Under the pieces are notes generated by a model. The model was not told where the DNA came from. It saw only the letters and a list, made by a program, of their open reading frames with translations, and searched no databases. The position numbers and the translations under genes are program-made. Below are positions 1,225-51,167 of a stretch of DNA of 51,167 nt, in pieces; positions within the stretch are counted from its first letter, which is position 1; each line of letters opens with the position of its first letter. This DNA comes from a virus. The stretch lies in IMG/VR virus record IMGVR_UViG_3300044462_000123. One strand, written 5' to 3'.

Positions 1225-2193
1225 GTGGCCAGTGTGGAGCTGCAGTTCCCGCCCGCGATCAGCAACCACAGCGCCGGCGGGCCAGGCTACCGCACCAGCA
1301 TCGTGGAGCTGGACAGCGGCGCCGAGGAACGCGTCGGTTTCTGGTCGGCGCCGCGGTACCACTACAACCTGCAGTACGGCATCCGGAACTTCGCCGACCT
1401 GCGCACCGTGCTGAACTTCTACGTGGCGCGGCGCGGGCCGGCGGTGGCCTTCCGCTACAAGGACTGGCTCGACTACAGCAGCTCGGCCACTGGCAAGCCC
1501 AGCAGCAGCACGCCGGTCAACACGGACCAGCAGATCGGCGTGGGCAACGCCAGTCAGACGGCCTTCCAGCTCGTGAAGAACTACGCCGACGCCGGCGCCA
1601 CGGTGGTGCGCACCGTCACGAAGCCGGTCACGGGGTCCGTCACAATCTCATTCGACGGCGTCGATCAGCCGTCCGGCTGGACGGTCGACACGACCACCGG
1701 CATCGTCACGTTCTCGGTCGCGCCCGGGAACGGTGTCGTCGTCAAGGCCGGCTACCTCTTCGACGTGCCGGTGCGCTTCGGCGGCGAGATCGACGCAGGG
1801 CTTCTGCTGGCGCTCGACACGTTCGACGCCGGGTCGCTGCCGTCCATCCCGCTCGTAGAGGTCATCGGCGAGACGCCGAGTGCGGAGGACAAGCCGCCGG
1901 GCGGCTCAGCGGCCGTGTCGCTCGCGGCCAGCGCCAGCTTCACGCGCGCGACCGGCGAGCTGCTGGTGGTGACGCCAACGACGGGCGGCTTCAACTACAC
2001 GCAGAGCGAGCCCGAGACGGGGCTGGGCCTCGGCGGCCCTTACCATCGCATCGTCAACGCCAGCGGCTCCTTCTCCTTCACGCTCAAGGGCCAGCTAGGT
2101 GGCACCATCGTCTCGGTCGCCGCTGGCGCGACCTACGAGATGTGGATCAAGGACGGCGGCGCCGGCACCAAGCAGTGGGCGGCCTTCCCATGA
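1225..2193 (+). CDS. Distal tail protein, RcGTA g12-like (DUF2460 / TIGR02217-type)
   Basis: N-terminus ELQFPPAISNHSAGGPGYRTSIVELDSGAEERV...WSAPRYHYNL matches the remembered DUF2460 signature. Sits directly after the tape measure. Confidence 0.85.
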   Translation: MASVELQFPPAISNHSAGGPGYRTSIVELDSGAEERVGFWSAPRYHYNLQYGIRNFADLRTVLNFYVARRGPAVAFRYKDWLDYSSSATGKPSSSTPVNTDQQIGVGNASQTAFQLVKNYADAGATVVRTVTKPVTGSVTISFDGVDQPSGWTVDTTTGIVTFSVAPGNGVVVKAGYLFDVPVRFGGEIDAGLLLALDTFDAGSLPSIPLVEVIGETPSAEDKPPGGSAAVSLAASASFTRATGELLVVTPTTGGFNYTQSEPETGLGLGGPYHRIVNASGSFSFTLKGQLGGTIVSVAAGATYEMWIKDGGAGTKQWAAFP

Positions 2194-2528
2194 TCGACGA
2201 GGCTACGTACTACGGGGGCTCTCTCAAGAAGACGCTGGCCGCCGAGTACCACATTAGCCCGCGCAGGGAGCGCTTCGGGCACTTCGACGCGACGGGCTCC
2301 AACTTCGCCGTGCGCCTGCCTGACGCGACGCAGTTGCGCACGGGGCTCGACACGATGCTGGTGGCGGCCTTCACCAACACGCTCACGGTCAAGGACAAGA
2401 CCGGCGCCACGCTGACGACCATTGGGGTCGATCGAGTGAAGCGCTTCCACCTGCTCGACAACTCCACAGCCGCCGGCGTCTGGCACTTCAGCGCGGGCTT
2501 GGCCGTGAGCCTCGGGACAGCCGTCTAG
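2190..2528 (+). CDS. Hypothetical protein (112 aa) between the g12-like and g13-like genes
   Basis: ATGA overlap with the upstream stop and TAGTG overlap with the downstream start. High GC3. Confidence 0.6.
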   Translation: MIDEATYYGGSLKKTLAAEYHISPRRERFGHFDATGSNFAVRLPDATQLRTGLDTMLVAAFTNTLTVKDKTGATLTTIGVDRVKRFHLLDNSTAAGVWHFSAGLAVSLGTAV

Positions 2529-3427
2529 TGCCAGCCACCATCGCCCCGCCGTGCGCCGCCCTGCTGGAGCAGAAGACCCTGCGCTTCGCGTATCTGTGGG
2601 CGATCCTGCGCGCGGATGGCGTGCTGCTCTTCTTCACGGACCACAACGCCCCGCTCGTGTTCGGCGGGTTCACGTTCTACCCGGGCGGCTTCGACGCCTC
2701 GGCGCGGCGCGCGGACGGCGGGCTGGAGACGCACAGCCTGTCGCTCGAGGGCATGATCCAGTCGGGCGACATCGCGGTCGCCGACCTGCGCTCAGGGCGT
2801 TACGACGAGGCGCAGATCTTCGAGTACCTCGTCGACTGGCGCTACCCGTGGGCTGGCGCGATTCGCACCAGGACGTGGTGGATCGACTCGGTGTCCTTCG
2901 ACGGCCAGCGCTGGTCGGCCGAGACGTCGGGGCTCGTGCGCTTCCCGCAGGTGCCGACCGGCAAGCTGCTGGCGCGCACCTGCTACTGGAAGCTCTACGA
3001 GAACTTCGGCGTGTCCGGCAAGGCCGGCTGCAAGCTGGACCCGGCCGCGTTCACCTTCACGCCGATCGCGGTGGCTGTGGTCACCGACCCGCGACGCATC
3101 TTCACCTGCGACACCGGCATCACGGGCTCGCTGGGCGCCGACTACTTCGCCGATGGCCGCGTGACCTGGCTGACCGGGCCCAACGCGGGCGTTGTCTCCG
3201 AAGTCGCCACGCACAACGACCACGCGGGCGGGCTCTACACCGTCGAGCTGTACGTGGAGACGGACTTCGACATCGCGGTCGGGAACACGTTCACGATCAC
3301 GGCCGGCTGCGACAAGCTTTTCTCGACCTGCAAGGCGAAGTTCAACAACGTGGTGAACTTCGGCGGCGCGCCCAAGAAGCCACGCGCGGGCGACCTACTC
3401 AAGATCGCGAAGACGCCACAGTCGTGA
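2528..3427 (+). CDS. Tail hub protein, RcGTA g13-like (DUF2163 plus phage BR0599-type C-terminus)
   Basis: LRFAYLWAILRADGVLLFFTDHNAPLVFGG..FYPGGFDASA and the C-terminal CDKLFSTCKAKFNNVVNFGG motif. Synteny with the g12/g14/g15-like genes. Confidence 0.85.
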   Translation: MPATIAPPCAALLEQKTLRFAYLWAILRADGVLLFFTDHNAPLVFGGFTFYPGGFDASARRADGGLETHSLSLEGMIQSGDIAVADLRSGRYDEAQIFEYLVDWRYPWAGAIRTRTWWIDSVSFDGQRWSAETSGLVRFPQVPTGKLLARTCYWKLYENFGVSGKAGCKLDPAAFTFTPIAVAVVTDPRRIFTCDTGITGSLGADYFADGRVTWLTGPNAGVVSEVATHNDHAGGLYTVELYVETDFDIAVGNTFTITAGCDKLFSTCKAKFNNVVNFGGAPKKPRAGDLLKIAKTPQS

Positions 3428-3855
3428 CGGAGACGATGCATACCCGCCAGGACGTGGTCGACCTGACCCGGAGCTGGATCGGCACGCCGTGGGTCCATCA
3501 GGGGCGCCGCGCCGGCGTCGGCCTCGACTGTGTCGGCCTCATCACCAGCGCGCTGGCCGTGCTGGGCGAGCCGACGAGCGACTACACGTGGTACCGGCGC
3601 GCGCCCGAGGGCGACAACCTGCTGCGCGAGATCCGCGCGCGCTTCGTCGAGCTGCCGGCGCCTGAGCCCGGGTCGCTGCTCGTGTTCTTCATCCGCAGCC
3701 GGCGCGTGGCCCAGCACATCGGGCTCCTGACCTACGACGGCACCATCGTGCACGCCAACGCCGCCGCCGGGCGCGTGTGCGAGCAGCCCTACGACGCCGA
3801 GTGGCAGCGCCGCACGCTCGCGGCCTTCGACCTCACGCGGAGGGCCACCGCGTGA
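3424..3855 (+). CDS. NlpC/P60-family cell-wall peptidase, RcGTA g14-like (tail-associated)
   Basis: WIGTPWVHQGR..GLDCVGL (Cys) ... AQHIGLL (His) ... IVHANA. GTGA overlaps at both ends. An alternative start is ATG 3436. Confidence 0.85.
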   Translation: MTETMHTRQDVVDLTRSWIGTPWVHQGRRAGVGLDCVGLITSALAVLGEPTSDYTWYRRAPEGDNLLREIRARFVELPAPEPGSLLVFFIRSRRVAQHIGLLTYDGTIVHANAAAGRVCEQPYDAEWQRRTLAAFDLTRRATA

Positions 3856-6494
3856 ACTACGTCGGCGATACCTTCCGGTTCGGCGGGACGCTCTTCAGCT
3901 ACATCCCTGGCGTCGGCGGCCCGTTCGAGAAGCTGTTCGACGCCGCCGGGCAATACTTCGATCCGCAGTCGCGCATCTCGGCGCGCCCGATCAAGGAGTT
4001 CGGCGTCAACTCAGGCGAGCCGTTCTCGCCGCTGGACCTCCCTTTCGGCCCGTCGGCTCCCGTCGACGGCGTCGTCGCGTACATCGGGCCGATCACGAAG
4101 AAGAAGGTCAGCACCACGAGCGGTAAGGGCGGCGGCTCGCAGACCGTCGACAGCTACCAGTACTTCGCGGACGTGGCGATCGACTTCTGCGAGGCGCCCG
4201 ACGGCGGCATCGTCGAGTACACGTCGCTGTGGGCTGACGGGCAGTTCGTCTACGGCCAGAACCCGGACCAGAACGAGACGAGCGACGAGCTGGCGCTCGA
4301 GGTCGTGACCCTGAAGGGCAAGACCTTCGTCGACATCAGCAGCCCGCTCGGCGGCCCGAACCTGAAGAAGTTCAAGCCCTCGGGCGACTCGGTCGTCATG
4401 ACGGGCTGGGCGACGGGCGGCAACAACATCACGGCCGACCCCGTGTCGTCCAAGAAGAAGAAGAGCGACGGCACCAGCATCCTGCGCCTGCTGGTCGCCC
4501 CCGCCGATGCCGCGGGCGTCGCCGACGAGGCCGCCGGCTCGACCGTGACGCTCTTCCAGGCGAACCAGAAGAGCAACCTGAACGACCTGGCCGACGTCGA
4601 GCTGTACCTCGGGACCGACAGCCAGATCGCCTCGCCGGCCATCGAGGCCAACGAGGGCACCGGCAACGTCGAGGCCGCGCGCGGCCGGTGCCGCGTGGTC
4701 ATCAACAAGCTCTACCTCAACAAGTGGGGCAACCGCGTCCCGATGTCATGGCGCGCCGTCGTCCAGGCCCACGCCTCGCTGACGCTCGCTCAGGCCATCT
4801 CGGGGCTGCTGCTGCGCGGCGGGCTGACGGCCGGGCAGTTCGACGTCACCGGGCTCACGGGCGACGTGCAGGGCTTCGTCCTGCGTGCAGGCGACGCCCC
4901 GGCCAGCATGGTCGTGGCCCTCATGATGGCCTACGACCTCATGGCGCGCGAGGTGTCCGGGCAGCTCGTGTTCTTCCATCGCGAAGATGCCCCGCACGTC
5001 ACCGTCGGGGCCGAGGACCTCGGGGCCCACGCGGCCGACGAGAGCCCGCGGCGCGAGATCGACCTCGAGCGCTCCCCTGCGCTGGACCTGCCCAGCGACG
5101 TCCGCGTGTCCTTCCTCGACCCGACCAAGGACCTGCAGCAGTCCGACGCGCGCCAGCAGATCGCCAACGCCACGACCCAGGCCAGCGTCTCGGTCAACCT
5201 TCCGATCGTGCTGGACCCCGAGGACGCGCGAGCCATCGCCAAGCGGCTGGCCTGGATGCCGCGAGCCACACGGCACGAAGCCACGTTCAACTGCCCGCCG
5301 TCGCGACAGGATATCGTCGAGGGCGACGTTCTCGACGTCACGGCCCACGGCGAGGCCTGGCACCTCGTGGCCCAGCGGGTCGAGGCAGGCAAGAGCGGCA
5401 TCGTGGCCGTGCGGGCCCAGTCCGACAACACGGGCGTGGTCTCCGTCGCGCCCATCGCCGGCAGCGACGACGACAGCGACTCGCTGCAGGTGCCGCCACC
5501 GATTGCGCTGGACGTCATGGACATCCCGGCCATCACGCCCGAGCACGTGCTCCTGCCGGGCCGGTACTTCGCGCTGGCGCTGTACGACACCGAGCAGCCG
5601 TGGCCCGGCGGCGTGGTCTACGAGAGCACAGACGATGGCGACAGCTTCCTGCCGATCGCGCTGGCGCAGACCGAAGCCATCGCGGGCTACGTCTCGGCCG
5701 TAGCGGTGTCGGGCTCCAGCGGTGGCGGTCTGGTGTGGGACCTGCGCTCCAGCTTCACCGTCACGATCTGGAACGGCGAGCTGGAGTCGATCTCCGAGGC
5801 CGACGCGCTTGCGCTGCACAACCTCGCGGCGCTGCGCACGCCGGGCGGCGAGTGGGAGCTGATCATCTTCCGCAACGCCACGCTCATCGGCACCACGAAC
5901 CTCGGGCACAAGGAATATCAGGTTGACACGATCCTGCGCGGCGTGCGCGGGACCGAGTACCTCATCACGACGATCACCGCCGGGTCGGCCTTCGTCCTGC
6001 TGGAGCCATCGCAGTTCTCGCAGGGGTTCATCGCGGACCTCGGCACCGAGCGGCTGTACAAGGCCGTCCCAAACGGCGGCGCCTCCTCCGACTTCAGCGA
6101 CACCGAGGAGCTGACGGTGGCGCTGCACACGCTCACGCCGTGGGCACCGACCCTCATCAGTATCACCCCGGACGTCATCTTCCCACTCCTCGACGGATCG
6201 CGTGACGAGACTTTCGTCTGGCATCGCCGGACGCGCGCGTTCACGGACCCACTCGAGCCGGACCAAGTGACCCTCGCCGAAGAGGTCAACGAGTTCTACG
6301 TCGACATCTACGTGTCCGGCGGGTTCGTGCGCACCGAAATGGTCCCCGGCGGCGACGACGGCGAGACGACGTGGACCTATACGGCCGCGGACCAGATCAC
6401 CGACGGGGCGAACCCCACGGATATCGGGACCGTCATCATCTACCAGCGCAGCACCTCGGTCGGGCGGGGCTCACCGCTCGGCCCGCTCGGCTGA
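3852..6494 (+). CDS. Host-specificity / central tail-tip protein, RcGTA g15-like (gpJ-like)
   Basis: 880 aa in the g15 position. Contains SYQYFADVAIDFCEAP..GIVEYTSLWADGQ, as in phage tail protein (Phage-tail_3-type) families. Confidence 0.8.
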   Translation: MNYVGDTFRFGGTLFSYIPGVGGPFEKLFDAAGQYFDPQSRISARPIKEFGVNSGEPFSPLDLPFGPSAPVDGVVAYIGPITKKKVSTTSGKGGGSQTVDSYQYFADVAIDFCEAPDGGIVEYTSLWADGQFVYGQNPDQNETSDELALEVVTLKGKTFVDISSPLGGPNLKKFKPSGDSVVMTGWATGGNNITADPVSSKKKKSDGTSILRLLVAPADAAGVADEAAGSTVTLFQANQKSNLNDLADVELYLGTDSQIASPAIEANEGTGNVEAARGRCRVVINKLYLNKWGNRVPMSWRAVVQAHASLTLAQAISGLLLRGGLTAGQFDVTGLTGDVQGFVLRAGDAPASMVVALMMAYDLMAREVSGQLVFFHREDAPHVTVGAEDLGAHAADESPRREIDLERSPALDLPSDVRVSFLDPTKDLQQSDARQQIANATTQASVSVNLPIVLDPEDARAIAKRLAWMPRATRHEATFNCPPSRQDIVEGDVLDVTAHGEAWHLVAQRVEAGKSGIVAVRAQSDNTGVVSVAPIAGSDDDSDSLQVPPPIALDVMDIPAITPEHVLLPGRYFALALYDTEQPWPGGVVYESTDDGDSFLPIALAQTEAIAGYVSAVAVSGSSGGGLVWDLRSSFTVTIWNGELESISEADALALHNLAALRTPGGEWELIIFRNATLIGTTNLGHKEYQVDTILRGVRGTEYLITTITAGSAFVLLEPSQFSQGFIADLGTERLYKAVPNGGASSDFSDTEELTVALHTLTPWAPTLISITPDVIFPLLDGSRDETFVWHRRTRAFTDPLEPDQVTLAEEVNEFYVDIYVSGGFVRTEMVPGGDDGETTWTYTAADQITDGANPTDIGTVIIYQRSTSVGRGSPLGPLG

Positions 6495-6506
6495 CACGGA
6501 GGCCTC

Positions 6507-8528
6507 ATGACCGAGACAATCAATATCCAGGTGCCCCTGATCCCCGAAGGCGCGGTGAAGGGCCACGTCACGCACAACACCGGCATGACGCTGATCGATT
6601 GGGCGCTGCTGGGCAGCCTGAACACGATCACGACCACGAACACGCCGCTCGGCTCGCCCGTCGACGGCGACGCACGCATCATCGGCGGCGCGCCGACGGG
6701 CGCGTGGGCCGGGCATGCCAGTGAGATCGCGGTCTATCTCAACGGCTGGCACTTCATCGTGCCGATCGAAGGCCTGCAGCTCTGGGCCGAGGACACCAAT
6801 AAGCAATACGTCTACGACGGGTCGGCGTACCAGCAGGTGTACCCAAGCGGCGGCGGCGGGTCGACGCCGACGGGGACTGGCTTCCGGCACGTCACGGGCG
6901 GCGTCGAGGACGCGGCGGCCAAGCTGGTCGACACGGCGGACATCAACAATGCGCAGGTCACGCTCGCGAAGATGGCGGACCTGGCGCAGGACCTCTTCAT
7001 CGGCCGCACGACGGCGAGCACTGGCGTCCCACAGACGGCGACGATCACAGCGGCGGCGCGCACCGTACTCGACGACACGACCGTTGCCGCGATGGTCGAC
7101 ACGCTGGGCGGCGCGTCATCGACGGGCTCCGGTGGCCTTGCACGCGAGACGAGCCCGGCGTTCGTCACGCCGGCGCTCGGAACGCCGGCATCCGGCAATG
7201 ACCGCAACCTCGCGAGCCACGGCGCCGACGTGGCCTCCTCCGGGACGATCGACCTGGACGCCGCGACTGGCGTGGTGGTGGATGTTACCGGCACGACGAA
7301 CATCACCGCGATCACACTGGCCGACGGCAAACGGCGCATCTGCAGGTTCACCGGAGCTCTGACGCTCACCAACGGCGCCTCGCTGGTGCTGCCTGGCGGC
7401 GCCAACCTGACGACGGTGGCCGGCGACTACGCCATCTTCGCCGGGTACGCCGCGGGCGTCGTCCGTTGCGTCGCCTTCGCCCCGGGCAAGCTGCCGATCG
7501 CTCTCGGCGGCACGGGCGCCGTGACGGCTGGCGCAGCGGCGACCGCGCTGGGTGTCGGCACTGGCGACTCGCCGCAGTTCACCGCCGTCAACGTCGGCCA
7601 TGCCACCGACACGACGGTCGACCGCGCCAGCGCCGGCGACATCCAGGTCGAGGGCAACCGCATCTTCCGCGTCGGCGGAACCGACGTGCCGGTGGCAGAC
7701 GGCGGCACGGGGCAGAGCTCCATCATCGACGCGATGGATGCGTTCCACACGAAGAGCAGCGACATCGCCTCGGCCGCCACCACGGACCTGTCGACCGCGA
7801 CGGGCCTCTACGTTGACGTCACCGGGACCACGGACATCACGGCGCTGGGCACCGAGGCTGCCGGCGTGATCCGGCGCTGCCGCTTCACGGGCGCGGGGCT
7901 GACGGTCACCCACAACGCGACGTCGCTCATCATGCCGGGCGAGGCCAACTTCCGGACAAGCCCGAACGACATCTTGGAGTTCGTCAGCCTCGGCAGCGGC
8001 AACTGGCAGTGCGCGAACATCCCGCCGCCGCTCGAGCACACCTCGCGCCTGAACGCCGACTACACGCTGACCAGCACGATATCTGCACAGGTGCTCCTCG
8101 TGGCTGGTCAAAATACCTTCACGCTGCCGCTCGGCGTCTACGAAGTGAACCTGTTCATCTGCATCGACACCATGTCGGGCACCTCCGGCAATGCGTCCTT
8201 CAGCCTGCTCGGGGCGGGCAGCGCGACGGTATCTAATCCGCTGTGGCTCAACTTCGGCAACGATCTCGCCGGGAGCGCTGGTGGTGGCGCGGCGGGGGGC
8301 TGCTGGCAAGCCAACGTCGCCAACGGCGGCGCCAATGCCATTACCGCTGCCACGAATACGGGCATGTCCATGCTTGGGAGTGGCACCATCGACGTAACAG
8401 GAGCCGGCACCTTGATTCCCAGCATTACGCTCGTCACGGCTGCCGCTGCAGTCGTGCGCCGTGGATCGTTCATTCGCTTCCGGCTCATCGGCCCGAGCGC
8501 GATGACCAAGCGCGGCAAGGTGAGCTGA
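6507..8528 (+). CDS. Tail fibre protein with DUF2793-like N-terminal domain
   Basis: N-terminus GHVTHNTGMTLIDWALLGS...AWAGHASEIAVYLNGWHFIVPIEGLQLWAEDTNKQYVYDGSAY resembles DUF2793. Gly/Thr/Ala-rich fibre-like body with an internal duplication. Confidence 0.75.
   Translation: MTETINIQVPLIPEGAVKGHVTHNTGMTLIDWALLGSLNTITTTNTPLGSPVDGDARIIGGAPTGAWAGHASEIAVYLNGWHFIVPIEGLQLWAEDTNKQYVYDGSAYQQVYPSGGGGSTPTGTGFRHVTGGVEDAAAKLVDTADINNAQVTLAKMADLAQDLFIGRTTASTGVPQTATITAAARTVLDDTTVAAMVDTLGGASSTGSGGLARETSPAFVTPALGTPASGNDRNLASHGADVASSGTIDLDAATGVVVDVTGTTNITAITLADGKRRICRFTGALTLTNGASLVLPGGANLTTVAGDYAIFAGYAAGVVRCVAFAPGKLPIALGGTGAVTAGAAATALGVGTGDSPQFTAVNVGHATDTTVDRASAGDIQVEGNRIFRVGGTDVPVADGGTGQSSIIDAMDAFHTKSSDIASAATTDLSTATGLYVDVTGTTDITALGTEAAGVIRRCRFTGAGLTVTHNATSLIMPGEANFRTSPNDILEFVSLGSGNWQCANIPPPLEHTSRLNADYTLTSTISAQVLLVAGQNTFTLPLGVYEVNLFICIDTMSGTSGNASFSLLGAGSATVSNPLWLNFGNDLAGSAGGGAAGGCWQANVANGGANAITAATNTGMSMLGSGTIDVTGAGTLIPSITLVTAAAAVVRRGSFIRFRLIGPSAMTKRGKVS
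7227..7478 (+). repeat. Tail-fibre internal protein repeat, copy A (aa ~241-324)
   Basis: DVASSGTIDLDAATGVVVDVTGTTNITAI...RRICRFTGALTLTNGASLVLPGGAN aligns with copy B. Confidence 0.8.
7758..8021 (+). repeat. Tail-fibre internal protein repeat, copy B (aa ~418-505)
   Basis: DIASAATTDLSTATGLYVDVTGTTDITAL...IRRCRFTGAGLTVTHNATSLIMPGEAN. Confidence 0.8.
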
Positions 8529-41298: not shown

Positions 41299-41379
41299 AG
41301 ACATGGAGGGCCGGCTGCCTTCCGGTGGCAGGCCCCGCGGGCAGCGAGTTGACAGTCGCATGGCGTGGAGGGTGAGCAC

Positions 41380-41925
41380 GTGACGACACGCACGATTCCG
41401 TACTTCGAGGCGAGCGGCGCGCGGCTCGTGAACTCCACGCCGGCGGAGATTGCCGCGGCGGTGGCGCTGGGCTGGCTGCCAGGCTTCGAGTACTCGACGG
41501 GTCCGATCACGGACGCCGACCTGCTGCTGCCGGTGCTCTTCAGCGACAAGGAGCTGCGCGACAAGATCGCCGCTGCTGGCGGGCCGATCTACGACGCCGG
41601 CATGACGTCCGCGCAGCTCGCGATCGCGCTCCTGCGCGTGGCGGGCAAGACGGCCTACGACCGCGTGGAGGTCTCGTCCGTCACGGCCAACACCGGCACC
41701 ACGGCCGGTGGCGACGCGCGCACGATCGCCGGCTTCGGCTTCAGCTTCGGCCGCGGCGGCACGCCGACCGTGACGTTCGGCGGCAACCCGGCGACGTCGA
41801 TCGTCGTGGTGAGCGACACCAGCATCACGTGCGTCACGCCGGCTCACGGCGCGGGCGCGGTGTCGGTCATCGTGGGCAACGCCAACGGCTCGCATACCAA
41901 GGCCTCGGCCTTCACCTACTCCTGA
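41380..41925 (+). CDS. Ig-like (IPT/TIG) domain protein, candidate head decoration or fibre
   Basis: C-terminal VSSVTANTGTTAGGDARTIAGFGFSF..TPTVTFGGNPATSIVVVSDTSITCVTPAHGAGAVSVIVGN is a classic IPT/TIG pattern. Confidence 0.7.
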   Translation: MTTRTIPYFEASGARLVNSTPAEIAAAVALGWLPGFEYSTGPITDADLLLPVLFSDKELRDKIAAAGGPIYDAGMTSAQLAIALLRVAGKTAYDRVEVSSVTANTGTTAGGDARTIAGFGFSFGRGGTPTVTFGGNPATSIVVVSDTSITCVTPAHGAGAVSVIVGNANGSHTKASAFTYS

Positions 41926-42465: not shown

Positions 42466-42824
42466 CCACCGAGCTCGACACCGCCTTCGCCGACATGGCC
42501 CTCGAGATGGTCGAGGCGTTCGGACCGACGGCCATCTTCACCGACGTGCCTGGCACCTACGACCGCGTGACGGGCAGCGCGCCGGCGGGCGCGGTCCTCG
42601 GGCCCTTCAAGGTCTCGCCGCCGTTCCCCTACGAGCAGCGGTACATCGACGGCGACGTCATCCAGCGGCGCGACCTGCGCGTCATCCTGCCGGCGAAGGG
42701 CGCCTTCGTGCCGCTGCTGGGCATGACCGTCTCGCTCTCCGGCGTCTCGCACATCGTGGTGACCGTGCGGCCCTACCAGTCGGGCGACGACATCGCGGCC
42801 TACGAACTGCAGGTGCGCGCATGA
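42462..42824 (+). CDS. Head-closure / neck protein (hypothetical, 120 aa)
   Basis: Synteny between the adaptor and the gp10-like gene. GTGA/ATGA overlaps. Confidence 0.6.
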   Translation: MTTELDTAFADMALEMVEAFGPTAIFTDVPGTYDRVTGSAPAGAVLGPFKVSPPFPYEQRYIDGDVIQRRDLRVILPAKGAFVPLLGMTVSLSGVSHIVVTVRPYQSGDDIAAYELQVRA

Positions 42825-43243
42825 CCGGCACCAGCAACATCGAGGAGTTCAATCGCGAGGTGCAGGCCTGGGCCGAAACGATGCCGGCCAATGTGGTCGT
42901 CACGGCGCAGAAGAAGCTGGCCTTCGACGCCTTCGCCGGCATCGACGACAAGATGCCCGTCGACACGGGGCACGCGCGCTTCAACACGCAGGTCTCCGTC
43001 AACGACTACGCGCGCGGCGAGATCCCAGGCGTCGACCCGACCGGCAGCGTGGCGCGCGGGCGCGCCGAGGCCGCGCTGGCCGACATCCCGCCCTTCGCGC
43101 TGGTCGTGATCCACAACTCCGTGCCGTACATCGAGCGGCTTGAGGGCGGCAGCAGCACGCAGGCCCCCTCCCCCGGCGGCATATTCGACCTCACGGCCCA
43201 CGAACTGCTCGCGACCTTCGACGTCGAAGGCCTGCCCCCGTGA
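42821..43243 (+). CDS. HK97 gp10-like tail completion protein
   Basis: MPVDTGHARFNTQVSVN ... IHNSVPYIERLEGG matches the gp10-like pattern. Confidence 0.75.
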   Translation: MTGTSNIEEFNREVQAWAETMPANVVVTAQKKLAFDAFAGIDDKMPVDTGHARFNTQVSVNDYARGEIPGVDPTGSVARGRAEAALADIPPFALVVIHNSVPYIERLEGGSSTQAPSPGGIFDLTAHELLATFDVEGLPP

Positions 43244-44559
43244 CGACCTACACCGCCATCGCCACGCGCGCCTTCACAGTCAGCCCGGTGCCAGATCACC
43301 CGCACGCGATCCTGAAGGTCTTCCTGCCGAACGGCACGCCGAACCCCGAGGGGCACCCGGCGTGCATCTACAACATCCTCGAGAACGTCATCGACTGCGA
43401 CATGATCGACGTGATCGACGAGAGCCGGCCGGAGCTCGCGGCGATCCTCGATGCCCACAGCGCCCTCATCCTCGTGGCGAGCCCGGTCGCGCGTGGCGAC
43501 AACACGGGCAACACGGAAGCCAGCGTCGCCTACGACCCGGACAACAACCTGTTCGGGCCCAGCTACCGCGGCAACGGATGCAACTGGGCGCCGACGCTGG
43601 GCGTGCCCACGGGCCTGCCGACGGGCACGCATCCGATGGCCGACCCGCTCTGGTTCATGACCATCAAGTCCTACCCGCAGGCGGTGCAGTACGTCGTTAC
43701 GCAGCTCGTGGCCGAGTTCAATCTCGACCCGACGCGGCTGTGGGGCGGCGGCAGTTCGGCGGGCGGCCTCGGCGTGCTCGCGACGATGTGGGGCCCCAAC
43801 CGCGCGCCGCAAATGTTCCCCGGCGGCAGCGGGCAACTCGCGGTCGACACGCGCGCCGCACTGCGTTGCGCAGCGATCGAGCGCACGCAGACGTTCGGGC
43901 CCGTCTTCCAGCAGACCGGCGCCGGATGGTTCTTCCCGCAGGTGCCGGGCACGGGCACCGGCTACAAGGTCAACGCCCCGGGCGGCCTGCCCATCGGCAC
44001 CACCGTGATCCCGGTCGACACCGGCACCGGCACGATCATCAAGGGCGACTTCCTCGTGCTCTCGGGCATCGGCGACCGGCCACGCGTCTCGGTGGGACTG
44101 GCTGGCGGGCAGATCACGATCGCTTCGCCGCTCACCGCGGCGCTGGCCGACAACGCGAACATCACGATCCTGAAGACGTGGGACTGGCCCAGCTTCCCGA
44201 TCTCGATCGGCGACCAGACGAACCTCTTCGAGATGGCGCCGCTCGTCATGGCCGAGGCGCCCGCAGAGTACGCGGACAACGTGGCGAACAAGAAGTGCTG
44301 GATGCGCTACCTCGCGCCCGCGACCGCTGGCGCGCCCTACGACAAAACGCACCTGACCCACGACGAGCCGAACGTCCACAGCGTGTGGTCTGGCCGCGCG
44401 ATGAAGGAGCTCATGGGCACGGGCCTGCGGCTCGTGGTCAACGGCGCCGACGCGGCCGATGGCGTGCACGAGGACGCTGTGATCCTGACCGGCGACGCCG
44501 ACGTCTACGCCGACATGATGGCCACGATCTACGAGTGGCTCGAATACGAGTACCTCGGC
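43240..44559 (+). other. Domain: alpha/beta-hydrolase (esterase)-like, aa 1-440
   Basis: Nucleophile elbow LWGGGSSAGGLG (GxSxG; Ser codon near 43756). Ends at the poly-Gly linker GDGGGGGS (44560-44577). Confidence 0.55.
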
Positions 44560-47500
44560 GACGGCGGCGGCGGTGGCAGCGAGCCCGAGGGGGTCGCCTG
44601 GTACACGCGCATCGACCGGGCGATCCGCCAGCACTTCGGGACTGAGGTGGAGGACGCCCTCGTGATCCCGGCGGTCTACGACAACGAGAGCGAGGCCGTG
44701 GCCCTGGCGTCCGCGCGCTGGGCCCGCGTGCGGGTCGACCACGCGGGCACGAATCAGACGCACTTCGGGTCCATCCCCAAGTACCGGCGCGCCGGAGACC
44801 TCGTCGTCGAATGCCGCTGCCGGGTAGTCCAGGGCGACGGCTCGGCCGTGCAGCTCGCCGACGCGGTCGTGGCGGTCTTCCGCGGCGCCACCGTGGGCGA
44901 CGACGTGAACGTCATCTTCCGGCAGCCGCGCGTCGACGGGCCGCACAGGGACGGCGCCTGGTGGGTTGCGACCGTGCGCGTCCCTTGGTACAGCGACGAG
45001 TCCGTCGAGCACAGCGAGGCCGGCCCGGACGATGCGGCCGCCACGTTCGGCGACATCACCGAGGCGCTGCGGGCGCGCTTCCAGAGCTACGTTGAGGCGC
45101 CCCTAGGGCTGACGACGCAGTACGACGACCAGGCCTTTGCGCCTGAGCTGGGCCAGGCCTGGGCGCGCTTCAGTGTGCTCCTGGGGAGCCAGATCCACCC
45201 CGAGGGCAGCGAGCGGCAGTGGTATCGGCAGATCGGCATGGCGGTGGCCCAGGTCTTCGTGCCGGCTGGGATCGGCCATGGCCAGGCCCTCACCATCGTC
45301 GACACGATCGACGAGGCCTTCCGGTCGACCAGCCAGCAGGGCGTGGTGCTGGGCGAGCCGGCGCTGCGCACGGTTGGTCGCGACGGCGCGTGGTGGCAGC
45401 TCAACGTGACGCTGCCGTTCCAGGCGCCCATCACCGTCGCCGACGACGTGGTCGACAGCATCTACCCCACGGGCTCGCTCTACGAGCCGCCCACGGGCAT
45501 GGTGCTGTACGGCCTCTCGCACTTTCCTTCCGACGCCCTGTCCTACGTGGACGCGCTGGCCAACGGCGTCCCCGGAGGTGGTGGCGGCGGCGGCCCGCCG
45601 TCGGACTACCTGCCGCTGGACGTCAGCGTCGCGAAGGTCATACCGGCCGCGCTGACGGCGTGGACCGACACCGACACGCTCGTGACCTTCGCGGTGCCGC
45701 TGCCCGACCTGCTCGTGGCCGACCTTGCTGGGCGCCCGGAGCTGTCGCTCTCCGGGGCCTCGATCTGGCAGGCCCGCACGCTGCAGAAGTGGCCCAGCGG
45801 CTTCGCGAAGTGGGCGCTCTTCAAGGCGCGGGTCAACCCGGCCACCACCACGACCCTCACGATCAGCGGGTCCGGCGTTGGCAAGTCGGCCGGGTCCGAC
45901 CTCCTGAGCCTGACGGGCGGGGTCTACACGCTCGCCACGGGCGCCGTGACGGCGACGGTGAAGGTCCCGTCCTTCAATCTCTTCGACAGCGTCAAGATCG
46001 GCGCGCTCACCATCATGGCGTCCGGCACGGGCGGCCCAGGCCTCCTCGGCACGATGGCAGACGGGGTGACGGGCCTCGTCATCCGCTCCACGGCGGTCGG
46101 CCGCGTCGAGGACAACGGCCCCGCCAGCGCGTGCCTGCGGATCGACGGCGAGCTGGCGGCCAGCACCGCCCCGACCGTCACGGTGGCGAAGTTCGCATGC
46201 CGCTTCGTTGCGGCCGCGCAGTCGCCGGACATCGCCGTCACGTTCACGGTGCAGAACGACACCTGGCACCTGAACGCCTCGCCCTCGACCGACGACAACA
46301 AGCATCTGCAGCTCGGCTGGGTCGAGATCGGGTTCCGCATCAACGCGGGCGCCAGCCGCACGCTCGTGTGTTGCAACCCTGGCTCCGAGACGGCGCAGAG
46401 CATCGGCGGCGTCGGGCAGCCCAAGGACGTCTACTGCTACCAGAAGTACAGCACGGCAGCGACCACCGACGTCTCGGGCACGGGGCCGGCGTACAAGCCG
46501 CACATCACGAAGGACGGAGCCGGCGTCTTCACGCAACAGGGATGGGAGAAGCGCGACGACAACGTCCTCACCGTGGACCTGCCGGCCGGGAGCTGGCCCC
46601 AGCACGGGTACCTGAACCTGTCCGGCGCGTCCGCGGGCTGCACCATCGGCATCCGGCACATGCCCTTCTTCTGGCCCGCATCGCTGCGCGGGAATGACAA
46701 CGGGTCGGTGGGCGTCGGCCTCTTCCCCCGCTACAACCCGGACAAGTACGTCTTCCCGTGGCGGATGCACGAGAGCCGGGAGTGCGTCTTCTCGTTCCAC
46801 GCCGGACCGATCGGCGCGCTGCCGTCGACCAGCCTTCCGTCGCAGGTCGTCAAGCGCCTCGACTACCCGCTGTACGGGCGTCTCGCCGACTACAGCAAGT
46901 ACGACGCGGCGGGCGTCTTCCCCTATCGGCTGGCGACCATAGCGGAACAGCAGGAGCTCTACACCGCGCTGGGGATCGCGCACACGCCGGCCGTCAGCAA
47001 CGAGAGCATGCAGGTGCTGCGCTTCCGCGCCTCGAGCACGACGGGCGGCGACAACAACCACGCGGCCGGCGAGGTCCGGCTGGTCGACGCGTTCCTGCGC
47101 TACGGCAAGGGCGGGCAGCTCTTCCGCGGCCTCGACATGGCCGTCTACCTCGCCGAGTGGGCCATCCCGCGCTCTTCGGACTTCGCGGACGCGGACGACC
47201 CTGGCGCCAGCAACGACGGGACGCTTGCCCACACCACCGGCACCTTCGACGACGGGAACAGCGACCAGCACCTCTACGACGAGAACATGCTTGACGCCTA
47301 CTTCCTGACGGGCGACGAGCGCCTGCACGCGTCGCTGTTCGACGAGGCCGACGTGCTCGCCGCGGTGACTTTCTCGGTCAACGGCAACGAGCGCGGGAAC
47401 TACCAGTGGTTCCGCGCGGCCTCGCTCGTCGCCGAGTTCCTGGCGGATCAGAGCCCGACGGAAGCGGCGACGCTCAAGGCCTCGCTCAAGGCGCGGATCA

Positions 47501-48993
47501 CGGCGCACTCTGCCACCACAGTGGACGTCGACGCGGTTTCCTCCGGGTCGGGGTGGGACAACGCCACAGCCGGCGCGGGCGCGCGCGGGTACTACGCCAG
47601 CTCGCTGCAGAACCTCGGCGAGCAACTGCCTGGCGAGTTCTTCGTGGCGCGTGGCTTCGTGAGCGCACGCCTCGGTCCCGTCGCCTTCAAGATCACGCAG
47701 CGGTACCTCACCGTGGCCGACAGCGACGGCGTCAAGGCCCAGGGCCGCAAGAAGGACTTGGCCAAGTGGACGAAGAACGAGCTGCTGGCGACGGCCACCG
47801 GCCCGGACGTGCCCGCCGGCATGCTCGGGCAGAAGTGCCTGATCTACAGCTACCAGATCCACCTGCAGACGCCGGGCGCCGACGACGCCAGTCACCCGGG
47901 CGGATTCCAGCACCCCGACTTCCACTCAGTGCTCACGGCTGCGGCTGAGGGGTGGCGCGAGACAGCCGACGCGGCCTACATCGCGATGGGCGTCGCCCAC
48001 ATCGCGGCCTTCGTCGCGGACGGGAACGTCGCCGTGCTTGACTCGGGCCTCGAGGTGCAGGACTTCGTGCAGGCCTACCACGACTTCGTGACGCCGCCCG
48101 AGGAGAGCGAACCGCCCGATCACCTGCCGGGGATCGTGGCCCACGTCTACAACCTCGGGATCAATGATCACCCCGACCCGACCACGGAGCAACTGGTCGC
48201 GGTGCTCGACGAGCTTGACGGCCTCGGCTACGTGCCGCGGTTCGGGATCACGCTGCAAGACCAGACCGGCGACCCGCAGATCCCACTCGACGACGTGATC
48301 GCGACCACGAGCACCTACGACGATCAGATCGACACGCTCGCCCAGGCGCTCGTGGAGTTCGACAAGCCTGTCTTCCTCGCGATCGGGTGGGAGTGCAACG
48401 GCCACTACACCACCGCGTACTACCCTGCCGCGTTCCGCAAGATCGTGGACATGGTCCGCGCCGCGGGCGCGACCAAGGTCGCCTTCGTGTGGGGCATCGA
48501 GGCCACGCCCGCCAGCAACTACGACGACTGGTATCCGGGCGACGCCTACGTCGACTGGTTCGCCGTCGACGTCTTCCGCAAGGACAAGTACCTCACCGCC
48601 GGGCACCCGGTGAACACGCACTTGGTGACCTTCCTGGCCTACGCGGTGGCGCACAGCCGTCGCGTGATGCTGCTCGAGGCCGAGGCCGTGGGTGAAGACA
48701 TGCCGGGCGGCACGATCTTGCCCGATCCCGCGGACGGCACGGCGCAGTACGCCTACTGGTTCCACGCGTTCTTCGCGCTGCTCGCGGCGAACCCGATCAT
48801 CGGGTGCTTCGAGTACACGAACCAGGACCTGACGGGCAGCGGGTACGACGTGCCCGGCATGGGCTGGAAGAACGGCAGACTCGACGTCAACAGCGACGTC
48901 TTCTTGCCCTGGGTCGCAGAGATCAGCCAAGAGAAATACATCGACTCGTCGCGGCGCGACCTGCTGCTGCACTGGTCAGAAAACCACGGTTAG
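43240..48993 (+). CDS. Giant multidomain virion protein (1,917 aa): esterase-like + 2 x tail-terminator-like + unknown ~840-aa region + GH26-like glycosidase
   Basis: Single uninterrupted high-GC3 ORF. GTGA overlap with the gp10-like gene, and the tail tube gene starts 13 nt after its stop. Domain evidence is given in the sub-features. Confidence 0.85.
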   Translation: MTTYTAIATRAFTVSPVPDHPHAILKVFLPNGTPNPEGHPACIYNILENVIDCDMIDVIDESRPELAAILDAHSALILVASPVARGDNTGNTEASVAYDPDNNLFGPSYRGNGCNWAPTLGVPTGLPTGTHPMADPLWFMTIKSYPQAVQYVVTQLVAEFNLDPTRLWGGGSSAGGLGVLATMWGPNRAPQMFPGGSGQLAVDTRAALRCAAIERTQTFGPVFQQTGAGWFFPQVPGTGTGYKVNAPGGLPIGTTVIPVDTGTGTIIKGDFLVLSGIGDRPRVSVGLAGGQITIASPLTAALADNANITILKTWDWPSFPISIGDQTNLFEMAPLVMAEAPAEYADNVANKKCWMRYLAPATAGAPYDKTHLTHDEPNVHSVWSGRAMKELMGTGLRLVVNGADAADGVHEDAVILTGDADVYADMMATIYEWLEYEYLGDGGGGGSEPEGVAWYTRIDRAIRQHFGTEVEDALVIPAVYDNESEAVALASARWARVRVDHAGTNQTHFGSIPKYRRAGDLVVECRCRVVQGDGSAVQLADAVVAVFRGATVGDDVNVIFRQPRVDGPHRDGAWWVATVRVPWYSDESVEHSEAGPDDAAATFGDITEALRARFQSYVEAPLGLTTQYDDQAFAPELGQAWARFSVLLGSQIHPEGSERQWYRQIGMAVAQVFVPAGIGHGQALTIVDTIDEAFRSTSQQGVVLGEPALRTVGRDGAWWQLNVTLPFQAPITVADDVVDSIYPTGSLYEPPTGMVLYGLSHFPSDALSYVDALANGVPGGGGGGGPPSDYLPLDVSVAKVIPAALTAWTDTDTLVTFAVPLPDLLVADLAGRPELSLSGASIWQARTLQKWPSGFAKWALFKARVNPATTTTLTISGSGVGKSAGSDLLSLTGGVYTLATGAVTATVKVPSFNLFDSVKIGALTIMASGTGGPGLLGTMADGVTGLVIRSTAVGRVEDNGPASACLRIDGELAASTAPTVTVAKFACRFVAAAQSPDIAVTFTVQNDTWHLNASPSTDDNKHLQLGWVEIGFRINAGASRTLVCCNPGSETAQSIGGVGQPKDVYCYQKYSTAATTDVSGTGPAYKPHITKDGAGVFTQQGWEKRDDNVLTVDLPAGSWPQHGYLNLSGASAGCTIGIRHMPFFWPASLRGNDNGSVGVGLFPRYNPDKYVFPWRMHESRECVFSFHAGPIGALPSTSLPSQVVKRLDYPLYGRLADYSKYDAAGVFPYRLATIAEQQELYTALGIAHTPAVSNESMQVLRFRASSTTGGDNNHAAGEVRLVDAFLRYGKGGQLFRGLDMAVYLAEWAIPRSSDFADADDPGASNDGTLAHTTGTFDDGNSDQHLYDENMLDAYFLTGDERLHASLFDEADVLAAVTFSVNGNERGNYQWFRAASLVAEFLADQSPTEAATLKASLKARITAHSATTVDVDAVSSGSGWDNATAGAGARGYYASSLQNLGEQLPGEFFVARGFVSARLGPVAFKITQRYLTVADSDGVKAQGRKKDLAKWTKNELLATATGPDVPAGMLGQKCLIYSYQIHLQTPGADDASHPGGFQHPDFHSVLTAAAEGWRETADAAYIAMGVAHIAAFVADGNVAVLDSGLEVQDFVQAYHDFVTPPEESEPPDHLPGIVAHVYNLGINDHPDPTTEQLVAVLDELDGLGYVPRFGITLQDQTGDPQIPLDDVIATTSTYDDQIDTLAQALVEFDKPVFLAIGWECNGHYTTAYYPAAFRKIVDMVRAAGATKVAFVWGIEATPASNYDDWYPGDAYVDWFAVDVFRKDKYLTAGHPVNTHLVTFLAYAVAHSRRVMLLEAEAVGEDMPGGTILPDPADGTAQYAYWFHAFFALLAANPIIGCFEYTNQDLTGSGYDVPGMGWKNGRLDVNSDVFLPWVAEISQEKYIDSSRRDLLLHWSENHG
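44593..45000 (+). other. Domain: tail-terminator-like (DUF4128-type), copy 1, aa ~452-587
   Basis: IDRAIRQHF...IPAVYDNESEAV...ARWARVRVDHAG...YRRAGDLVVECRCRV.QGDGSAVQLADAVVAVF...GAWWVATVRVPWY. Confidence 0.65.
45040..45429 (+). other. Domain: tail-terminator-like (DUF4128-type), copy 2, aa ~601-730
   Basis: ITEALRARFQSYV...TTQYDDQAFAPELGQAWARFSVLLGS...YRQIGMAVAQVFVPAGIGHGQALTIVDTIDEAF...GAWWQLNVTLPF. Confidence 0.7.
45607..48114 (+). other. Region of unknown function, aa ~790-1625 (first half beta-rich-looking, second half helix-rich-looking)
   Basis: Begins after the GGGGGGG linker (45574-45594). No family recognised by eye. Confidence 0.4.
48127..48990 (+). other. Domain: GH26-like (clan GH-A TIM-barrel) glycoside hydrolase, aa ~1630-1917
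   Basis: KPVFLAIGWECNGHY (acid/base Glu codon at 48391-48393), AFRKIVDMVRAAGATKVAFVW, DDWYPGDAYVDWFAVDVF, RRVMLLEAEAVG (candidate nucleophile). Confidence 0.6.
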
Positions 48994-49005
48994 GAGGGCA
49001 CTCAC

Positions 49006-50199
49006 ATGGCCAGCGGCGCACTACTCAAGGTCAGTTACAAGTCCGAGAAAGACGCGGCCGGCGGCACGTATGGCGTCGACCCTGGCGCGGGCAGCGTCCA
49101 ACTGCGCGAGGTGCGCTACAGCCGCTACGGCGTCGACATGACGCCCGCCTTCGCCGAGACGGACGAGATCCGCAGCGACCGGCAGACGGTCGACGCGATC
49201 ATGACCGACTTCGGCGCGGCCGGGCAGATCGAGGCGCCCTTCGCCTACCTGATCCACGACGACTTCATCCGCGCGGCGATGCTCGTCACCAGCGACTTCC
49301 AGGCCGGAGTTCTGCTCGCTGCGCTGACCAATCTGACCTTCGCGGCCGCCGGGAACACGATCACGCGGGCGTCGGGCGACTTCGTGGCCGCCGGCATCGT
49401 GGCCGGTGGCTTCATCCGCATCACGGGCGCCGCGCAGGCTGGCAACAACTCGGTCTGGAAGATGACCAACGTCACGACGACGGTCATCACGGTCTCGGGC
49501 GGAACGCTGGTGAACGAGTCGGCCGGCGCCTCGGTGGTCATCAAGCAGAGCCAGGACATCAAGCCCGGCACGACGATCCACAGCATGATGTTCGAAGCGC
49601 AGTTCACCGACCTGTCGAACGAATACGCCGTTGCGACGGGCATGATGGTGTCGCGCTGGGCGCTGTCCGTGCCGACGAACGGGCTGATCAAACAGACCTT
49701 CGACACACTGGGCAAGACGGTGGCGTCCGCCAGCGCGACAACGGGCACCGGCGCCATCATCGCGGCGCCCACGAGCGTGCAGTTCTCGTCGGTCAACAAC
49801 ATCGACAAGGCCTGCGTCGCGGGCGCGGTGGTGTCCCTGACGGCCGTGCAGTTCAGCCTCGACAACCGGCTGCGCCGACACCTGGCGATCGGGACGCTGG
49901 GGCCCATCGACCTCGGCATGGGTTCGATCGGGCTGGAGGGCAGCTTCGAGGCCTACTATGCCAGCAAGGCCGACTGGGACAAGGCGAAGGCCAAGACCGA
50001 CAGCTCGCTTTGGCTCTCGTTCGTGGACGCCGCGAACGACCGCTACGTCATCGAGTTTCCCGCGATCGTGTACACGAGCGCGACGCGCACGGCGGGCGGC
50101 AAGGACAGCGACGCAGTCGCAACCATCGGCTTCCGCGCGAAGCGCAGCACCGCGTCCTATGACCTGACGATGATGCGCTTTTCCAAGATTGCGCCGTGA
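49006..50199 (+). CDS. Major tail tube protein
   Basis: Lies immediately before the G/GT chaperone. N-terminal KSEKDAAGGTYGVDPGAG...LREVRYSRYGVDMTPAFAETDEIRSDRQTVDAI resembles tail-tube families. Carries an inserted middle domain. Confidence 0.75.
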   Translation: MASGALLKVSYKSEKDAAGGTYGVDPGAGSVQLREVRYSRYGVDMTPAFAETDEIRSDRQTVDAIMTDFGAAGQIEAPFAYLIHDDFIRAAMLVTSDFQAGVLLAALTNLTFAAAGNTITRASGDFVAAGIVAGGFIRITGAAQAGNNSVWKMTNVTTTVITVSGGTLVNESAGASVVIKQSQDIKPGTTIHSMMFEAQFTDLSNEYAVATGMMVSRWALSVPTNGLIKQTFDTLGKTVASASATTGTGAIIAAPTSVQFSSVNNIDKACVAGAVVSLTAVQFSLDNRLRRHLAIGTLGPIDLGMGSIGLEGSFEAYYASKADWDKAKAKTDSSLWLSFVDAANDRYVIEFPAIVYTSATRTAGGKDSDAVATIGFRAKRSTASYDLTMMRFSKIAP

Positions 50200-50227
50200 G
50201 CCGCAGCAGGCCCCCAACGGAGATCCA

Positions 50228-50641
50228 ATGAAGTTCTACCAGGCCATGATCGACCCGGAGCTAGACCGCGAGGGTCGCTGGGCCGAGTTCGTGCCCGGGA
50301 TGCGTTTCCGCATCGCCCGCATGGACAACAAGCGCGCCCTCGACAGCCACCGGCAGCGGCTGGCCGACGAGCAGGCGCGCGTCGGGCGCGCCAAGATCGC
50401 GCCCGAGGTGCTGGGCGAGATTGCGCTCGAGACCCTCGCGCGGCATGTGCTGCTGGGGTGGGATGGCGTGGACGACGCCGACGGCAAGCCCATCCCGTAC
50501 AGCCCGGAGAAGGCGCTGGAGTTCCTGCGCGACGAGCGGTGCCGCGACCTGCGGCGGTTCCTCGAAGAGGCCGCGAGCGACGCGGCCGCGTACCACGCCT
50601 CGGCGAGGAAGGACGCCGAGGGAAACTCGCGGAGTGCCTGA
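50228..50641 (+). CDS. Tail assembly chaperone (gpG-like)
   Basis: Position between the tube and tape-measure genes. Contains the slip site near its 3' end. Confidence 0.8.
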   Translation: MKFYQAMIDPELDREGRWAEFVPGMRFRIARMDNKRALDSHRQRLADEQARVGRAKIAPEVLGEIALETLARHVLLGWDGVDDADGKPIPYSPEKALEFLRDERCRDLRRFLEEAASDAAAYHASARKDAEGNSRSA

Positions 50642-50960: not shown

Positions 50961-51167
50961 GTGCCGACTCTCGAGCTGGCGATTGACGCGCGGAGGGCGC
51001 GGTACGGCGCCGACGACTTCGCGTCTGCGACGGACCGCGCCAAGGCCTCCGCCACCGGCGCCGCTGGCGCCACCGAAAAGTTCACCGTCGCGATCGAGGG
51101 CCACTCGCGGGCGCAGCACGCGCTGCAGCGCGCCCTCGACGTGTCGGGCAACCTGGCCAAGGGATTC
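50961..51167 (+). CDS. Tape measure protein, 5' portion (continues at position 1 via the circular junction)
   Basis: GTG 50961 lies 2 nt after the GT-product stop and is in frame with 2-1222 through the 127-bp overlap. Confidence 0.75.
   Translation, partial: MPTLELAIDARRARYGADDFASATDRAKASATGAAGATEKFTVAIEGHSRAQHALQRALDVSGNLAKGF
51041..51167. repeat. Terminal direct repeat, copy 2 (identical to 1-127)
   Basis: Exact identity read base by base. Confidence 0.95.

Follow-up and report, generated by a model that had tools for sequence, protein, structure and literature searches.

Analysis of a 51,167-nt stretch of viral DNA (IMG/VR record IMGVR_UViG_3300044462_000123; the whole stretch is referred to here as the window) points to a giant open reading frame (ORF) in the slot of the tail terminator gene of a siphovirus. 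On balance, its 1917-aa product is probably one structural virion protein that would serve both as tail terminator and as a scaffold displaying polysaccharide-degrading modules at the head-tail junction. An earlier note on this DNA had described a single uninterrupted ORF, coupled by GTGA to a gp10-like gene and ending 13 nt before the tube gene. It had read the translation as an alpha/beta-hydrolase-like module, a poly-Gly linker, two tandem terminator-like domains, a second poly-Gly linker with an ~840-aa region that could not be placed, and a C-terminal barrel resembling glycoside hydrolase family 26 (GH26). The features on which the present analysis relies are as follows.

42821-43243, + strand: Neck1/gp10-like tail-completion protein, directly upstream of the giant ORF
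43240-48993, + strand: giant ORF, GTG start, 1917 aa, 204.8 kDa, isoelectric point 4.8, 11.3% of the genome
43240-44562, + strand: N-terminal domain (aa 1-441), conserved in the metagenomic proteins P0003-P0005
43744-43767, + strand: GGGSSAGG motif (aa 169-176), with S173 as candidate nucleophile
43948-44181, + strand: small inserted Gly/Thr-rich domain (aa 237-314) within the N-terminal domain
44563-44577, + strand: Gly5 linker (aa 442-446)
44596-45015, + strand: terminator domain 1 (aa 453-592), the further diverged of the two copies
45037-45450, + strand: terminator domain 2 (aa 600-737), closer to the canonical form than domain 1
45463-45564, + strand: predicted first strand and helix of GH26 (aa 742-775, YPTGSLYEPPTGMVLYGLSHFPSDALSYVDALAN)
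45574-45594, + strand: Gly7 joint on the N-side of the insertion (aa 779-785)
45607-48087, + strand: PcRGLX/PL26-like three-domain module (aa 790-1616), predicted as N-terminal barrel, beta-sandwich and helical C-terminal domain
48088-48126, + strand: Pro/Glu-rich joint on the C-side of the insertion (aa 1617-1629)
48127-48981, + strand: main part of the GH26 barrel (aa 1630-1914)
48391-48393: predicted GH26 acid/base E1718, in IGWECNG
48676-48678: predicted GH26 nucleophile E1813, in MLLE
49006-50199, + strand: tail tube protein (PF18906, phrog_290), downstream of the giant ORF

The giant ORF is a genuine uninterrupted gene. The genome has a GC content of ~70%, at which long ORFs commonly arise by chance and length alone proves nothing. 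In the giant ORF, GC content is 0.65, 0.48 and 0.94 at codon positions 1, 2 and 3, respectively, and third-position GC (GC3) lies between 0.89 and 0.97 in all 19 of the consecutive 100-codon blocks examined. As GC3 is uniform across the blocks, we read the ORF as one genuine frame that conceals no frame change. An identical 1917-aa protein is recorded on four JGI contigs, the longest of 51,258 bp, and together with the uniform GC3 this bears out the single frame first described. An independent 2,810-bp metagenome contig (L006, Ga0137451_1009612) matches window positions 47798-50607 with seven mismatches and no indels, running colinearly from the final 1.2 kb of the giant ORF through the intergenic spacer into the tube gene. 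Six of the seven differences change an amino acid (four in the giant ORF, two in the tube gene) and one, in the tube gene, is silent, numbers too small to interpret. The window ends are identical over 127 nt (1-127 and 51041-51167), and because of this repeat the genome is taken to be closed and circular, or circularly permuted, with a length of 51,040 bp.

Position 43240 is the earliest start codon 3' of the in-frame upstream stop, and the N-terminus MTTYTA is common to the giant protein and to homologues of its N-terminal part. The GTG start shares the sequence GTGA with the TGA of the Neck1 gene, the coupling already seen in the sequence; between the TAG stop and the ATG of the tube gene at 49006 lie 12 nt (not 13, as previously counted), which contain AGGAGGG. 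The joints of the ORF were inspected for internal starts and for frameshift routes to a short terminator, and neither a start codon nor a Shine-Dalgarno context was found there. Antisense ORFs of high GC3 inside the gene (43962-44291, 46437-46700 and 48753-48941) were set aside as shadow frames, which are usual in genes of high GC content. The motifs that had been quoted from the translation are all present in their places: besides the five- and seven-glycine runs listed above, they are LWGGGSSAGG (aa 167-176), IGWECNGHY (aa 1715-1723), WYPGDAYVDWFAVDVF (aa 1764-1779) and MLLEAEAVG (aa 1810-1818).

Judged by profile comparison, the giant protein carries the sole terminator-like domains of the genome, and it carries them at the canonical position. 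Profile matches confirm the order Ad1, Hc1, Neck1, giant ORF, tube and chaperone, and hence the placement between the gp10-like and tube genes that the earlier note had given. The protein matches PF13554 (Phage_tail_terminator_5) with 63.6 bits (cut-off 27, 2.6e-17) and phrog_179 (tail terminator) with E 1.2e-40, in two stretches in each case. Terminator domain 1 on its own still reaches 29 bits against PF13554 (cut-off 27), and the two copies are 28% identical to each other (E 3e-12), in agreement with the original reading of two tandem domains. The six frames of the closed genome were scanned with a terminator hidden Markov model (HMM) built from both copies and four relatives; no other terminator-like ORF emerged, and the next best hit had an E value of 0.64. 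Tail terminators are otherwise single domains of ~130 aa, and a chain of 1917 aa with two tandem domains departs from that pattern.

C-terminal to the terminator pair lies a glycosidase. The last 317 residues match the GH26 beta-1,3-xylanases AlXyn26A (7xjr, 4.8e-18) and XYL4 (2ddx, 2.8e-12), and also the lichenase CelH, while the score of 20.3 for the Pfam GH26 family PF02156 narrowly exceeds the cut-off (20.2). Across 20 aligned sequences (the query and 19 homologues), E1718 does not vary and E1813 is kept in at least 90%. The nucleophile mutant E243A (7xs3) matches the same region, at a place where HMMER left a gap. A HMMER pairwise placement that put the nucleophile at the later GE of AVGEDMP was rejected: P0006, a podovirus protein described below, lacks that glutamate and keeps the equivalent of E1813. 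The C-terminal GH26-like TIM barrel of the earlier note is thus substantiated. By homology the domain is real, and both predicted catalytic glutamates are kept.

This barrel is not contiguous. A GH26 HMM built from the 19 homologues, with the query left out, matches the giant protein twice and collinearly, model positions 37-70 aligning with aa 742-775 and positions 75-371 with aa 1630-1914. Taken alone the short match is weak (7.6 bits); it is exactly collinear with the long one. Since the profile matches in two collinear pieces, the PL26-like module is most simply nested before the second GH26 strand, and the expected (beta/alpha)8 barrel is interrupted by ~850 aa. AlXyn26A and XYL4 resemble the giant protein in their significant match and in both catalytic glutamates, and differ from it in that its barrel is split after the first strand and helix. 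Because GH26 begins directly after terminator domain 2, the second poly-Gly run becomes an insertion joint: the seven glycines are there, as had been noted, but they lie inside the GH26 barrel and not between the terminators and a separate region.

The inserted segment, previously left unplaced, can now be assigned by predicted fold to the PcRGLX/PL26-like enzymes, and it is nested within GH26 instead of standing in front of it. A phmmer search with aa 800-1917 returned 1,506 relatives. Among 24 aligned family members, 20 match PF21345 (PcRGLX_2nd) and 10 match PF19501 (PcRGLX_1st); the giant protein itself stays below threshold for the PcRGLX Pfam families. The AlphaFold2 (AF2) model of aa 790-1616, computed with the family alignment, has a pLDDT of 89.4 and a pTM of 0.91. 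When this model was compared with the PDB by Foldseek, the top 13 matches were all PL26 exo-rhamnogalacturonan lyase PcRGLX (best 5xqo, E 8.8e-20, TM 0.61/0.57 over the full length), and the next fold class followed at E 1e-8 and TM 0.17. The family profile matched nothing among PDB sequences, and it was fold comparison alone that identified PcRGLX. No close structural relative of the module was found in BFVD (best TM 0.37), nor did tblastn against 50,697 phage records reveal a relative of the module or of the GH26 part. The likeness to PcRGLX (5xq3, 5xqo) lies in a three-domain fold shared over the whole length at TM ~0.6 and in the Pfam matches of the homologues; the differences are a sequence identity of 12-13% and the nesting of the module in another enzyme. 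In module numbering, N483, R498 and H555 are invariant in the family alignment, and H388, R391, R472, D524, R596, E725 and Y749 nearly so. Such invariant polar residues are as expected if the family comprises active PL26-like enzymes.

The same cassette occurs in an unrelated setting. P0006 (L003:10001-17734) is a protein of 2,577 aa encoded by a T7-like podovirus contig. Its identity to the giant protein is 65% over aa 790-1616 and 30% over the GH26 part, and it shows the same GH26 split, with matches at aa 731-773 (15.1 bits) and 1981-2278. Its aa 509-730 correspond to tail nozzle residues 332-552 (8ck1, 6.1e-75) and its last 296 residues to nozzle residues 553-830 (5.6e-23). Because nozzle matches flank the cassette, we place the insertion in the nozzle loop between residues 552 and 553. 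P0006 can accordingly be described in three levels of nesting, namely nozzle, GH26 and PL26-like module. Its anchor, the distal nozzle of a short tail with the cassette inserted internally, differs from the C-terminal fusion of the giant protein. Tail nozzle and terminator-type proteins form rings in related phages. Sequence comparison of the two carriers argues that the nested cassette is mobile and is carried on virion ring proteins of unrelated phages, and its presence in two unrelated ring-type tail proteins is the strongest indirect evidence for display on particles.

For the N-terminal domain, an alpha/beta hydrolase of esterase-like type is a possible identity. The sequence GGGxSAG is invariant in all four family members, so that the G-x-S-x-G elbow is conserved, and D325 and H380, invariant in the same four sequences, are candidates by conservation and not by structure for the acid and histidine that would follow the serine. 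When the family profile was compared with the PDB, it found only four HSL-type (EST2-type) carboxylesterases, aligned exactly at the nucleophile elbow with E 0.58. Pfam and NCBIfam gave no matches to the domain, and hhalign of the family against E. coli Aes aligned 35 columns round the serine motif with a probability of 1.8%. The motif behind the original alpha/beta-hydrolase assignment has therefore stood, but no significant profile or fold match accompanies it. An AF2 model of this domain with terminator domain 1, based on a four-sequence alignment, reached a pLDDT of 31, terminator part included; as the terminator part came out low too, the value reflects the shallowness of the alignment. 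The small domain inserted at aa 237-314 resembles a segment of a P22-type coat protein (Microcystis phage Me-ZS1, 40.5% identity, E 5e-6) as well as members of phrog_283 and phrog_1302, and phrog_283 is also matched by P0003 and P0005. BLASTP of aa 221-320 against the phage's own capsid protein showed no similarity, and a PDB search with that segment gave matches at chance level only.

Enlarged terminators with N-terminal cargo appear to recur, with the giant protein as the extreme case. Plain terminators of ~136 aa occupy the same slot in Dinoroseobacter phages R26L and R5C, in PhiJL001 (gp77), in cyanophage KBS-S-2A and in Xanthomonas phage Xp15, those of R26L and PhiJL001 being 136 aa each. 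A tblastn alignment spanning two genes had raised the possibility of split terminator pairs in R26L and PhiJL001; this was rejected, as the ORFs are ordinary 136-aa terminators and the alignment extended spuriously upstream in the wrong frame of the neighbouring gene. In the Manatee Spring siphovirus MW202657, the slot holds a 546-aa protein composed of an unrelated N-extension of ~275 aa and the same tandem terminators, ending just past the second copy, with a phrog_290-type tube gene downstream. The three metagenomic proteins P0003, P0004 and P0005 (590-602 aa) share 47-59% identity with aa 1-441 of the giant protein, after which each has a C-terminal region of terminator size; a terminator match in that region was obtained for P0004 only, and it is weak (phrog_4204, E 0.0048). 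Their genes lie late in the head-tail cluster and, where this is visible, directly upstream of a ~470-aa tube-like gene, which in one contig (L002) matches phrog_290. A megablast search of phages returned no relatives. The 546-aa protein of MW202657 (L001:5164-6804, UOF80047.1) is deposited as a 'hypothetical protein' in a complete siphovirus genome and could be re-annotated as a tandem tail terminator.

If the giant protein is a virion component, assembly might proceed as follows. Once the tape measure had set the length of the tube, the tandem terminators would close off the last tube ring and attach to the Neck1 and head-closure proteins, either as six chains forming two stacked rings or as three chains forming one pseudo-hexameric ring. 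In T5, duplicated tube domains form a pseudo-hexameric trimer on which a hexameric terminator can sit, and the duplicated terminator fold of Pvc16, the cap protein of the Photorhabdus virulence cassette, can form additional rings too (PMC11784142). Three chains in one ring would be plausible given that the linker between the copies is only about 8-12 residues. With the terminator ring buried in the neck, the appended modules would project outward; Gly-rich flexible joints tie the terminator pair to the N-terminal domain and to the C-terminal cassette. The neck would thereby bear three to six arms, each combining a glycosidase (GH26) with a PL26-like lyase or hydrolase and, perhaps, an esterase. 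During passage through the matrix these arms would cut host capsule, exopolysaccharide (EPS) or biofilm polysaccharide around the bulky head, and they may also provide a reversible first binding.

A bolder extension is offered tentatively, and we would not be surprised to see it fail. Enzyme cassettes carried on core tail rings, here the terminator and in the podovirus the nozzle, and not on fibres or spikes, might represent a distinct and unrecognised way of carrying depolymerases. In this phage, the duplicated terminator would then form a three-chain pseudo-hexamer bearing three arms (esterase-like, PL26-like and GH26) that remove exopolysaccharide where the particle is widest, around its capsid, and play no part in receptor finding.

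Other explanations of the fusion have to be weighed against display at the neck. The terminator pair lies between the Gly5 and Gly7 runs, a neck would be heavily loaded by six chains of 205 kDa each, and in T5 the terminator N- and C-termini are engaged in subunit contacts (PMC11784142), all of which would suit a polyprotein or precursor cut at the Gly-rich joints, the virion keeping a small (tandem) terminator and the enzymes being released at lysis as soluble depolymerases. We nevertheless regard such processing as unlikely, since neither a protease site nor a protease pairing was identified, a cut at the Gly7 run, which is inside GH26, would split the barrel, the cassette of the podovirus sits in mid-nozzle where release by cleavage would break the nozzle, and the relatives of ~600 aa keep the N-terminal domain fused. 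It is also conceivable that the appended modules no longer cut and act mainly as carbohydrate-binding adhesins, for reversible attachment and not for depolymerisation. The neck-borne modules of 936 and P335 phages do bind saccharides with low affinity and without degrading them (PMC6669499), and the PL26-like module of the giant protein falls below Pfam thresholds; yet conservation of both GH26 catalytic glutamates with their surrounding motifs, and of the invariant or nearly invariant polar residues of the PL26-like family, makes a purely adhesive role quite improbable in our estimate.

An assembly artefact, in which a missed stop, a frameshift or a chimeric join has merged a terminator gene with enzyme genes, would be in keeping with the metagenomic origin of the contig and with the lack of a second example of the exact fusion between terminator domain 2 and the cassette. 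It is very hard to reconcile with a GC3 of 0.89-0.97 throughout and no frame change at the joints, with the missing start codon context there, with the identical protein on four contigs, and with a genome that closes by a 127-nt overlap and has a coherent gene order; moreover, every other type of junction has an independent precedent within a single ORF. We consider this the least credible of the alternatives.

Several points nonetheless weigh against a terminator that displays enzymes at the neck. The junction between terminator domain 2 and the cassette (aa 737-742) has no homologue carrying the same fusion and is attested by assemblies of this genome only. Scans of IMG/VR and of GTDB genomes returned no relatives of the giant fusion, the relatives in INPHARED are limited to the terminator domain, and the fusion is known from one phage population only. 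For the N-terminal domain it is a motif alone that speaks for the fold and hence for esterase activity, and the PL26-like module owes its identity to a modelled fold, which leaves lyase catalysis putative. By analogy with the T5 contacts cited above (PMC11784142), fusions at both ends of the terminator might disturb ring formation. Finally, display at the neck and the presence of the full-length protein in particles are inferred from sequence, and the copy number and ring geometries proposed for the tandem terminators are conjectural.

Comparison with known systems shows which elements have precedents. The terminators of type-1 necks ('Tc1'), such as lambda gpU, SPP1 gp17 and T5 p142, share with the giant protein their profile matches and the gene slot between Neck1 and tube gene, but they are single domains of ~130 aa, whereas the giant protein has tandem copies and ~1,640 extra residues distributed on both sides. 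In phi29, the pre-neck appendage gp12* places a wall-polymer-degrading enzyme round the neck or collar and not at the tail tip; phi29 is a podovirus, and gp12* is a trimeric beta-helix tailspike, a separate collar-bound protein. Pvc16, as discussed in PMC11784142, likewise has the terminator fold duplicated in one chain and tolerates extra domains, but its extra domain ends the sheath of a contractile system, while the giant protein has no sheath to end and its extras are enzyme-like. The neck collars (NPS) of lactococcal 936 and P335 siphophages bring carbohydrate-binding modules, beta-helix hydrolase-like modules and esterase-like modules to the head-tail junction (PMC6669499), and their C-terminal modules are hotspots of domain shuffling (PMC10684548). 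The giant protein resembles them in that it would likewise place non-essential-looking, carbohydrate-directed modules where head and tail of a siphophage meet; in NPS the C-terminal modules are often swapped (PMC6669499). An NPS, in contrast, is the product of a separate gene with a BppU-like N-domain and a trimeric coiled coil; the giant protein has a terminator anchor, no coiled coil was seen in it, its modules are GH26 and PL26-like, and no PHROG or Pfam match to an NPS-type BppU-like domain was found in it.

The novelty claimed by the earlier note can be narrowed accordingly. No terminator fused to enzymes was found in the literature searched, and to that extent the claim holds; neck-borne carbohydrate modules (PMC6669499) and larger terminators with extra or duplicated domains (PMC11784142), however, were already known. 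Carbohydrate-active appendages at the neck are therefore a known kind, and what would be new here is their anchoring by the terminator itself. Also unreported are a tandem terminator in a siphophage and a PL26-like module that is nested in a GH26 barrel and moves between ring proteins of different phages.

Searches for phage depolymerases centre on tail fibres and spikes. A terminator with ~170 kDa of carbohydrate-active modules would imply that core neck proteins can carry enzymes too, and that genes of this sort escape notice or are taken for hypothetical proteins. The giant protein offers a test case for the cargo that a terminator ring tolerates, for a three-chain pseudo-hexamer formed from a duplicated terminator, and for neck enzymes that would aid the crossing of EPS or biofilm. 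The nested GH26/PL26-like cassette, found in two unrelated virion proteins, is a candidate portable module for engineering enzyme-displaying phages.

The remainder of the closed genome provides the context of the giant ORF, and its genes follow the order known from siphoviruses with type-1 necks. The neighbouring structural genes are listed below.

Starting at 36158: portal
Starting at 37684: head morphogenesis protein
Starting at 38903: scaffold
Starting at 39814: major head protein
41365-41925: 186-aa protein, encoded between the major head protein and Ad1, whose C-terminal domain is of the IPT/TIG (Ig-like) type
Starting at 41938: head-tail adaptor Ad1
Starting at 42369: head closure Hc1
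50189-50641: assembly chaperone
50961 to 1222, across the circular junction: tape measure, 433 aa

The tail-tip genes (window positions 1225-8525) are of the RcGTA/PhiJL001 type and encode a DUF2460 protein, a protein with Phage_phiJL001_Gp84_N and BR0599, one with Phage-tail_3 and Rcc01698_C, and a DUF2793 fibre; a tail-tip module of this type suggests a probable alphaproteobacterial host. Enzyme domains were not detected among the tail-tip proteins of the window. The ORF at 1225-2190 is labelled 'glycoside hydrolase' by PHROGs (phrog_2913), a doubtful label, as Pfam shows DUF2460 only. Across the whole genome, neither tRNA genes nor Rfam families above gathering score were found. The TIG-domain protein at 41365-41925 may be a head or neck decoration protein. 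Directly after the chaperone ORF, an open frame extends to 50958 in a different frame, a layout typical of the programmed frameshift of tail assembly chaperones.

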